From a virus: a stretch of DNA of 39,693 nt. Shown here piece after piece: positions 27,801 to 30,800 of the stretch (positions are counted from its first letter, which is position 1; every line of letters starts with the position of its first letter). The DNA lies in UHGV virus genome UHGV-0150678. The stretch is one strand, 5' to 3'. Position numbers: made by a program.

Positions 27801-30800
27801 TGTGGCAATGCTGCGGCGATTCCTTGTATCTGGAGCAAATTAAATGACAGACATTACAGCCAATGTTGTAGTGAGTATGCCTTCGCAACTCTTCACTATG
27901 GCGCGTTCTTTTAAAGCCGTAGCCAATGGCAAAATTTATATCGGTAAAATTGACACTGACCCGGTAAATCCTGAAAACCAGATTCAGGTTTATGTAGAGA
28001 ACGAAGACGGTTCTCACATTCCTGTTTCGCAACCAATAATGATTAACGCTGCTGGATATCCGGTATATAACGGACAGATTGCCAAATTCGTAACCGTGCA
28101 AGGCCATTCTATGGCTGTTTATGATGCGTATGGTACACAGCAGTTCTATTTTCCTAATGTGCTGAAGTATGATCCTGATCAGTTACGGCAGCAATTAGAA
28201 GACCCAGATGGAGCGAATAAATACCCAAAACTTCAGATAGCAAGATGGAGAGACAGTTATGATGTAAGAGGTTGGGGGGCTATTGGTGATGGTGTTCATG
28301 ATGATACATCAGCTCTATCAGAATTACTTTCTGTTGCAACAGGTGGTGAAAAGATAGATGGGCGAGGGCTTACTTTTAAAGTATCAACTCTTCCAGATGT
28401 CAGTCGATTTAAAAATGCTCGTTTTTTATTTGAGAGAATACCGGGTCAGCCTCTTTTTTATGCTTCTGAAGATTTTATCCAGGGAGAGTTATTTAAAATT
28501 ACAGATACACCGTGGTACAACGCCTGGACGCAGGATAAAACGTTTGTATATGACAATGTCATCTATGCGCCTTTTATGGCTGGAGACCGCCATGGTGTAA
28601 ATAACCTCCATGTTGCATGGGTTCGCTCAGGAGATGACGGGAAGACCTGGACAACGCCGGAATGGCTTACAGATTTACATGAAAACTATCCCACAGTTAA
28701 CTATCACTGCATGAGTATGGGGGTTGTCAGAAATCGCCTTTTTGCTGTAATTGAGACGCGGACCGTGAGCGGAAATAAACTGCAGGTTGCAGAGTTGTGG
28801 GATCGCCCAATGAGTCGCAGCCTTCGCGTTTATGGTGGTATAACGAAAGCAGCAAATCAGCAAGTCGCTTATATTCGCATTACTGATCACGGATTATTTG
28901 CTGGTGATTTTGTCAACTTCTCAAACTCTGGTGTTACAGGTGTTACCGGGAATATGACGGTGACTACTGTTATTGATAAAAATACTTTTACAGTTACGAC
29001 GCAAAATACCCAGGATGTGGATCAGAATAACGAGGGTAGATACTGGAGTTTTGGTACATCATTTCACTCGTCACCATGGAGAAAAACCAGTCTTGGAACT
29101 ATTCCTTCTTTTGTTGACGGAAGCACTCCTGTTACTGAGATTCACAGTTTTGCGACGATTAGCGATAACAGTTTTGCTGTTGGCTACCATAATGGTGATA
29201 TTGATCCACGCGAGCTTGGGATACTCTATTTCTCTGATGCTTTCGGTTCTCCTGGTAGCTTTGTTCGCAGACGCATACCTGTAGAATATGAGGCGAATGC
29301 ATCTGAGCCATGTGTAAAATATTATGATGGCATTCTGTATCTGACGACCAGGGGGACATTAAGTACTCAACCCGGTAGTTCATTGCACAGAAGCTCTGAT
29401 TTAGGTACATCATGGAATTCTCTTCGCTTCCCAAATAATGTTCATCACTCAAACCTTCCTTTTGCCAAAGTTGGCGATGAGCTGATTATTTTTGGCAGTG
29501 AGCGCGCATTTGGTGAGTGGGAAGGAGGAGAACCTGATAACCGTTATGCAGGAAATTATCCAAGAACATTTATGACCAGAGTTAACGTCAATGAGTGGAG
29601 TCTGGATAATGTAGAGTGGGTTAATGTTACTGATCAGATTTATCAGGGCGGAATAGTTAACTCTGCGGTTGGTGTTGGTTCAGTTTGTATCAAAGACAAC
29701 TGGCTGTACTACATTTTCGGTGGGGAAGACTTTCTAAACCCATGGAGCATAGGGGATAACAACAGAAAATATCCTTATGTTCACGATGGTCACCCGGCTG
29801 ATTTGTATTGTTTCAGGGTGAAAATTAAACAGGAAGAATTTGTTTCAAGGGATTTTGTCTACGGAGCCACTCCTAACAGAACGCTTCCTACTTTTATGTC
29901 GACGTCAGGCGTGAGGACGGTTCCTGTACCCGTTGATTTCACAGATGATGTTGCCGTCCAGTCACTGACTGTCCATGCAGGTACATCAGGACAAGTTCGC
30001 GCGGAAGTCAAACTTGAGGGTAATTACGCCATTATTGCGAAGAAAGTACCGTCTGATGATGTTACCGCTCAGAGATTAATCGTTAGCGGCGGTGAAACAA
30101 CGTCTTCAGCAGATGGTGCAATGATAACGTTGCATGGTTCCGGAAGCAGTACTCCACGTCGCGCGGTATATAACGCACTCGAACATCTTTTTGAGAACGG
30201 AGATGTTAAACCTTATCTTGATAATGTAAATGCTCTTGGTGGTCCGGGAAACAGGTTCTCGACAGTTTATCTTGGCTCCAATCCTGTGGTTACCAGTGAC
30301 GGAACATTAAAGACAGAGCCGGTCTCTCCTGACGAAGCATTGCTGGATGCCTGGGGTGACGTCAGGTATATCGCTTATAAATGGCTGAACGCTGTCGCTA
30401 TAAAGGGGGAAGAAGGGGCGAGGATACATCATGGTGTAATCGCGCAGCAACTTCGTGATGTTCTTATTTCTCACGGACTCATGGAAGAAGAAAGCACAAC
30501 ATGCCGATATGCCTTTCTTTGCTATGACGATTATCCCGCAGTATATGATGACGTCATTACTGGCCAAAGGGAAATGCCGCTGACTGATAATGACGGGAGC
30601 ATCATTGTTGATGAGGATGATAATCCAGTGATGGTAATGGAAGACATCATTGAGCGCGTTGAAATAACGCCAGCAGGATCTAGATGGGGGGGCAGACCTG
30701 ATCTCTTATTCTATATCGAGGCGGCATGGCAGCGCAGAGAAATAGAAAGAATAAAAGCTAGGTTAGACTTAATAGAAGGGAAGCACTAAATGTTTCGTTG

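Follow-up and report, generated by a model that had tools for sequence, protein, structure and literature searches.

The 39,693-nucleotide viral genome UHGV-0150678, referred to below as the window, raises the question of what kind of tailspike is encoded at its positions 27844 to 30789 and from which sources the parts of this protein were drawn. The open reading frame (27844..30789, plus strand) begins with ATG, comprises 981 codons for 981 amino acids, and is preceded by a GGAG ribosome-binding site 8-11 nucleotides 5' of the start codon. An earlier sequence-only reading had described the product as a chimera, in which a P22-type particle-binding domain of about 110 residues is joined to a sialidase-like receptor-binding part, and had based this description on four motifs. 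The open reading frame and all four motifs were found where that reading had placed them, namely a GDG...DDT motif (residues 145-158, nucleotides 28276-28317), two Asp-boxes, SGDDGKTW (residues 262-269, 28627-28650) and SSDLGTSW (residues 517-524, 29392-29415), and a C-terminal segment (residues 858-874, 30415-30465), all on the plus strand. The pattern S.D.G..W occurs twice, against 0.009 occurrences expected for a protein of this composition.

Its sequence identifies the gene as an allele of siaK1, which encodes the endosialidase tailspike of the temperate P22-like coliphage CUS-3. In a megablast search of phage records, CUS-3 siaK1 (CP000711) matched it over the full length with 99.0% nucleotide identity; the match to phage vB_EcoP-720R6 had 99.6% identity. 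The CUS-3 protein SiaK1 (CP000711/ABQ88383) is of equal length, 981 residues, has the same domain order, and differs by 13 substitutions in 981 (98.7% amino acid identity), no frameshift separating the two. The excerpt of the GenBank annotation of siaK1 that bears on its function reads 'endosialidase tailspike protein ... endo-alpha-sialidase activity [Evidence IDA] [PMID 16689790]', and in its table entry the review PMC5380687 gives the CUS-3 enzyme as CAJ29292, an endo-N-acetylneuraminidase of 109 kDa (Stummeyer 2006). According to these two sources, degradation of the K1 capsule has been demonstrated by experiment for SiaK1, and by analogy with this nearly identical enzyme, the degradation of K1 polysialic acid that the sequence-only reading had predicted appears well founded. 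The P22-adaptor/endosialidase chimera of CUS-3 has been known since its publication in 2006, so the present finding is not new; the earlier reading did not recognise the tailspike as a published protein. The finding serves as a calibration point, since a first reading of the DNA alone was right even in its motif coordinates. It has value for annotation too: a 100% identical copy of the gene is present in six complete E. coli chromosomes, where it is labelled only 'phage tailspike protein', and the RefSeq name for the identical protein is merely the same. The gene can serve as a marker of temperate phages specific for the K1 capsule.

The domain architecture was established by a Pfam profile search, and the PDB was compared by sequence search. 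Six Pfam families were significant, each matched over approximately the whole profile and above its gathering score, in the order Head_binding, End_N_terminal, End_beta_propel with a nested End_beta_barrel, End_tail_spike and Peptidase_S74 (all of the following coordinates are on the plus strand). The P22-type Head_binding domain (PF09008) occupies residues 1-113 (27844..28182; profile positions 1-113 of 113, E = 1.6e-66), in agreement with the proposed match of the first 110 residues or so to the particle-binding domain of P22 gp9, and the head-binding structures of Sf6 gp14 (7sg7) and P22 gp9 (1lkt, 2vnl, 2xc1, 8tvr) matched residues 1 to about 118 with E values from about 1e-50 to 1e-64. 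It is followed by a linker or neck, residues 114-145 (28183..28278), which is the first segment in common with endosialidase spikes that are not of the P22 type (K1F gp17 residues 214-245, phi92 gp143). The N-terminal extension, End_N_terminal (PF12218), spans residues 146-212 (28279..28479; 1-67 of 67, E = 8.8e-37), and the six-bladed catalytic beta-propeller, End_beta_propel (PF12217), spans residues 213-662 (28480..29829; 1-367 of 367, E = 7.9e-233), with End_beta_barrel (PF12195) nested in it at residues 324-406 (28813..29061; 1-83 of 83, E = 1.2e-46). Both Asp-boxes fall within the propeller match, as would be expected of the sialidase fold to which they had been assigned. The stalk, End_tail_spike (PF12219), covers residues 663-817 (29830..30294; 1-160 of 160, E = 7.5e-78), and with it the predicted mature spike ends at its C-terminus. 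The remaining residues, 818-981 with the stop codon (30295..30789), form the chaperone or self-cleaving domain, of which residues 818-878 matched Peptidase_S74 (PF13884, E = 1.6e-10); the C-terminal segment that had been likened to the intramolecular chaperone lies within this match.

The structures agree with the profiles. The K1F endosialidase structures 1v0e, 3gvl, 3gvj, 3gvk and 3ju4 matched residues 145-817 with E = 0 and about 64% identity, the endosialidase structure 4hiz matched the tailspike with E = 9.5e-273, and the chaperone-domain (CIMCD) structure 3gw6 matched residues 698-979 with E = 7.7e-94. Similarity to endosialidases and to the S74 chaperone domain, on both of which the sequence-only reading had staked its proposal, was thus found. 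The sequence features of a phage endosialidase, a family which we take to be GH58 of CAZy, are present: a propeller with Asp-boxes, the N-terminal extension, the inserted barrel, the stalk, and the active-site residues of endoNF, the K1F enzyme (gp17). As in other proteins with the Peptidase S74/CIMCD domain, this domain is at the extreme C-terminus directly after the stalk and has a Ser/Lys dyad with the two residues five positions apart. From the P22-like (Lederbergvirus) tailspikes, the protein has the N-terminal head-binding domain and lacks the beta-helix O-antigen endoglycosidase: there is no similarity to P22 gp9 past residue 113, and the beta-helix and pectate-lyase families of Pfam gave no match at E ≤ 0.1. 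Because it belongs to the Lederbergvirus tailspikes through the adaptor domain only, the tailspike is a chimera.

The position at which the two modules meet was located by several alignments. With residues 1-150 as a tblastn query, P22-like spikes matched from residue 1 to about residues 113-133 (phage N7 with 90% identity over residues 1-122, P22 with 66% over residues 1-133), whereas the matches of K1F, phi92 and other spikes that are not P22-like began at residue 113/114. When residues 101-219 were used instead, the K1F-type matches started at residue 14 of the fragment, which corresponds to residue 114 of the protein. The BLASTP alignment to P22 gp9 was unbroken through ...NVLKYDPDQ, which ends at residue 113, and then dissolved into gaps; the Smith-Waterman alignment to K1F gp17 opened at residue 114 of the query and residue 214 of K1F, the linker (114-145) being 56% identical. 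Since the similarities to P22 gp9 and K1F gp17 bracket it from both sides, the swap point lies between residues 113 and 114, directly after the conserved N-terminal domain, where the boundary had been expected.

On the 3' side of this point, the tailspike aligned with K1F gp17 over residues 114-980 at 64% identity and shares with it the propeller, barrel, stalk and chaperone; on the 5' side, gp17 has a T7-tail-fibre N-domain and Tail_spike_N (residues 1-213) in place of the P22 head-binding domain, and K1F is a lytic T7-like phage. The spikes of P22 (gp9), Sf6 (gp14) and HK620 are the converse case: their head-binding domain, upstream leader and genome position are as in the window, but no similarity is detectable after residue 113, and they are O-antigen-specific beta-helix endoglycosidases without an S74 chaperone domain (PMC5380687). 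That review describes the N-terminal domain as common to CUS-3, HK620, Sf6 and P22 and the catalytic domain as shared with K1F, which has a T7 tail-fibre N-domain, and presents the CUS-3 tailspike as an illustration of module exchange (PMC5380687).

The 5' edge of the P22-type module was defined by a three-way alignment of the window, CUS-3 and P22, in which a leader of about 47-50 nucleotides 5' of the ATG, containing the GGAG, was common to all three (27797..27843, plus strand); similarity to CUS-3 starts at window position 27797. With the leader and the head-binding domain both conserved, the P22-type module spans approximately 27797-28182. The gene departs from CUS-3 siaK1 at 30 nucleotides, and 20 of these changes fall in the first 361 nucleotides (27844-28204), the head-binding part, which indicates that the adaptor and enzyme modules have had separate recent histories even among CUS-3-like phages.

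Functional residues were mapped from a local (Smith-Waterman) alignment to K1F gp17. Residues H350, R549, E581, R596 and R647 of endoNF, which are catalytic or substrate-binding (roles as cited in PMC12632334), correspond to H250, R456, E488, R503 and R554 of the tailspike and are all identical, as are the second-shell residues Q330, D331, H527, S528, K585 and N699 named in the same paper. The mapped catalytic residues are untouched by the 13 substitutions that separate the protein from CUS-3 SiaK1. Thr817 aligns with the last residue of the endoNF crystal chains, and the stretch S818-D-G-T-L-K823 aligns with S911/K916 of K1F gp17, so that the dyad is conserved. In endosialidases, the conserved serine and lysine form the self-cleavage dyad, which comes into its proper position only when the chain has folded and trimerised (PMC3742443). 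Cleavage is predicted at the bond between Thr817 and Ser818, with Ser818 and Lys823 as the putative catalytic dyad.

From the domain content, the conserved residues, the junction, the near-identity to SiaK1 and the genome context observed here, we consider it almost certain that the tailspike is a CUS-3-type chimera, in which P22-type attachment to the virion is combined with a chaperone-matured, self-cleaving trimeric endosialidase directed against the K1 capsule. The C-terminal chaperone domain (residues 818-981) would guide the trimerisation of the 981-residue chain. Once the trimer has folded, Ser818 and Lys823 would cut the bond between Thr817 and Ser818, freeing a fragment of 164 residues and leaving a mature spike of 817. 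The trimer would then plug through residues 1-113 onto the P22-type tail hub (gp4/gp10) encoded in the same window; in P22, the hub receives six trimers of the spike. Finally, the beta-propeller (residues 213-662, with H250, R456, E488, R503 and R554) would cleave alpha-2,8-polysialic acid internally, and a virion equipped in this way would bind the K1 capsule and digest its way through to the outer membrane. The enzymatic activity, self-cleavage and docking assumed in this scheme rest on published work with close homologues, and by analogy with these we infer that this allele and its phage are active and dependent on the K1 capsule.

A few observations weigh against this reading. Two positions of endoNF are not kept in the tailspike, K410 being replaced by G310 and Q853 by M760; of these, K410 was reported to tolerate mutation in phage K1F (PMC12632334). 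Moreover, CUS-3-like prophages are reported to decay often, their tail and coat genes frequently being annotated as pseudogenes (PMC9659370), so that an intact open reading frame does not guarantee an active phage. The latter point leads to an alternative explanation, according to which the gene, though intact, is left over in a prophage that has become defective or cryptic, and its product no longer serves as a virion spike but is at most a cell-associated or released capsule-trimming enzyme. The distribution of the gene in complete E. coli genomes is in line with frequent decay: some part of it was matched in 1188 of 5426, and at least 80% of it in only 181. This explanation is weakened by the virion module of the window, a P22-like genome, which is intact. 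Full-length Pfam matches were obtained for the terminase small and large subunits, the portal (P22_portal), the coat (P22_CoatProtein), gp4 (P22_Tail-4), gp10 (Phage_stabilise), gp14 (DUF2824) and gp7 (P22_gp7), and these open reading frames are followed by long ones sized like both P22 DNA-transfer proteins. A P22-type tail hub (gp4, gp10) and a P22-type head are therefore encoded in the same genome, as in Lederbergvirus, and the tailspike itself has retained the length of SiaK1 and its frame.

The order of genes also argues against a relic. An IntS-type integrase is encoded at 31889-33082 on the minus strand. Its chromosomal copies adjoin tRNA-Arg (argW); in the chromosome of strain SCU-124, for example, an identical spike gene is followed by an acyltransferase gene, intS, tRNA-Arg and yfdC. 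In the window, the integrase gene is followed instead by torI/xis-type and early-left genes (31889-33900), and a tRNA search of the window found none, which fits an excised or circular order with an attP carrying only the core. Because the integrase gene adjoins the torI/xis-type and early-left genes and no tRNA is present, the window is in the circular gene order of an excised or vegetative phage. The junction between the integrase and early-left genes (window 32900-33900) was contiguous over at least 80% of its length in only 13 of the 5426 E. coli genomes. Several of these 13 are extrachromosomal records of 30-39 kb (e.g. strain 0H26, 39448 bp), which are possibly phage genomes assembled as 'plasmids'. 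On balance, we regard a relic as very unlikely and the active CUS-3-type spike as the better explanation of the locus.

A second alternative accepts the endosialidase and supposes a shifted substrate, either the K92-type alternating alpha-2,8/2,9 polysialic acid or the O-acetylated K1 polymer produced by the phage's own NeuO. It draws on the 13 substitutions relative to SiaK1, on the endoNF positions that are not conserved (G310 and M760), and on the presence of the receptor-modifying gene neuO on the same phage. However, the mapped catalytic and substrate-coordinating residues are all identical to those of endoNF, and a change of specificity is improbable in a protein that shares 98.7% of its residues with an enzyme for which K1 polysialic acid was the assay substrate. 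Neither G310 nor M760 is among the 13 positions at which the two proteins differ, and hence CUS-3 SiaK1 has these residues too. Such a shift is, in our estimation, even less probable than a relic. The last alternative, a right-handed, pectate-lyase-like beta-helix depolymerase in which the Asp-boxes are incidental, has in its favour that many beta-helix depolymerases carry an N-terminal motif resembling GDGxxDDT, which the sequence-only reading had called beta-helix-type, but it is ruled out, as no beta-helix or pectate-lyase family of Pfam matched, the motif lies mostly inside End_N_terminal and residues 145-817 align to the endoNF structures with E = 0.

The phage is related to CUS-3 without being CUS-3 itself. 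A cassette of siaK1, neuO and the integrase gene is shared, window 27797-33222 being 98.8% identical to CUS-3 16-5518, and CUS-3, the host of which is E. coli RS218, has the same downstream neighbours (neuO with AAGACTC repeats, then the integrase) and the same upstream leader. In contrast, no more than 63% of window 1-25000 has a counterpart in CUS-3, with 96.4% identity, and the two differ in the early-left and immI regions. The genomes are not nearly identical and collinear throughout, and the phage of the window is a mosaic relative of CUS-3. In its early-left (recombination) and immunity regions (window 33240-39693 and 1-4000) it differs from CUS-3 and resembles the other P22-like coliphages Louie, Dewey, Gally and Kapi1, with about 94% identity; this difference is ordinary lambdoid mosaicism.

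A nearly identical copy of most of the enzymatic part was found outside the P22-like phages. The tail protein of ZX5 (vB_EcoP_ZX5, MW722083/QTH80017), an epsilon15-like phage of the genus Uetakevirus, has the endosialidase and S74 domains as in the window, and window 28365-30743 (approximately residues 175-967) agrees with ZX5 positions of about 2501-4880 in 99.5% of its nucleotides. In ZX5, this cassette of 2.4 kb is joined to another N-terminal adaptor. By megablast, ZX5 and two unannotated records share nucleotides 522-2914 of the gene at 99.5-99.6%. In the DNA alignment, one breakpoint falls within End_N_terminal, at about 28365 (codon ~175), and the other at about 30743, some 14 codons before the stop (codon ~967), with sharp divergence outside them, and neither is at the 113|114 domain border. 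Residues 1-204 of the ZX5 protein have no Pfam match, residues 193-234 show a diverged homology to the window, and the last ~14 codons differ. The paper describing ZX5 (PMC9782041) notes the endosialidase and chaperone domains and does not note the relation to CUS-3. A very recent transfer of the cassette from one genus of temperate K1 phages to another, through homologous recombination inside their endosialidase genes, may be suggested as a tentative and rather doubtful explanation; if it is true, the tailspike has at least two nested exchange units.

Downstream of the tailspike is neuO, a polysialic acid O-acetyltransferase contingency gene (30943..31649, plus strand), with its ATG at 30943 and eight copies of AAGACTC at 30948-31003. 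The hexapeptide-acyltransferase body occupies the reading frame 31005-31649, and the gene as found meets a stop after 38 codons; one repeat added in silico yields an open reading frame of 237 residues. Full-length NeuO is made only if the number of repeats is divisible by three (PMC3046976), and since eight is not, neuO is in phase OFF here. The CUS-3 record contains 19 copies of the repeat and annotates a poly(psi) domain in neuO, and the copy in the SCU-124 chromosome is annotated as an intact acyltransferase gene of 882 nucleotides. When in phase ON, NeuO O-acetylates the same polysialic acid polymer that the spike cleaves, and it is reported to protect against K1 phages (PMC9659370). The spike gene travels with a phase-variable capsule O-acetyltransferase gene that is linked to virulence and to protection from K1 phages.

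On the other side, directly 5' of the tailspike and divergent from it, lies a gene for a Mnt/Arc-family repressor (27446-27697, minus strand), which is not accompanied by arc or ant. The immI region is thus a reduced one: at this position CUS-3 and P22 have ant, and CUS-3 has, besides ant, two annotated 'boundary sequences', ant plus 'bsq1' standing where the window has mnt. A perfect 15-base-pair palindrome, AGACCACAGTGGTCT, is located at 27761-27775 between mnt and the tailspike gene and could be a Mnt operator. Should a promoter in this gap read rightward, Mnt might control the spike directly; a scan of the plus strand of 27698-27843 for sigma-70-like promoters gave no match. Further upstream, an open reading frame of 121 residues (26788-27153, plus strand), annotated as hypothetical in SCU-124, matches no Pfam family but has an HExxH motif (HECAH); a small accessory gene of metalloprotease-like type is conceivable here, situated in a part of the region that holds other immI genes in CUS-3.

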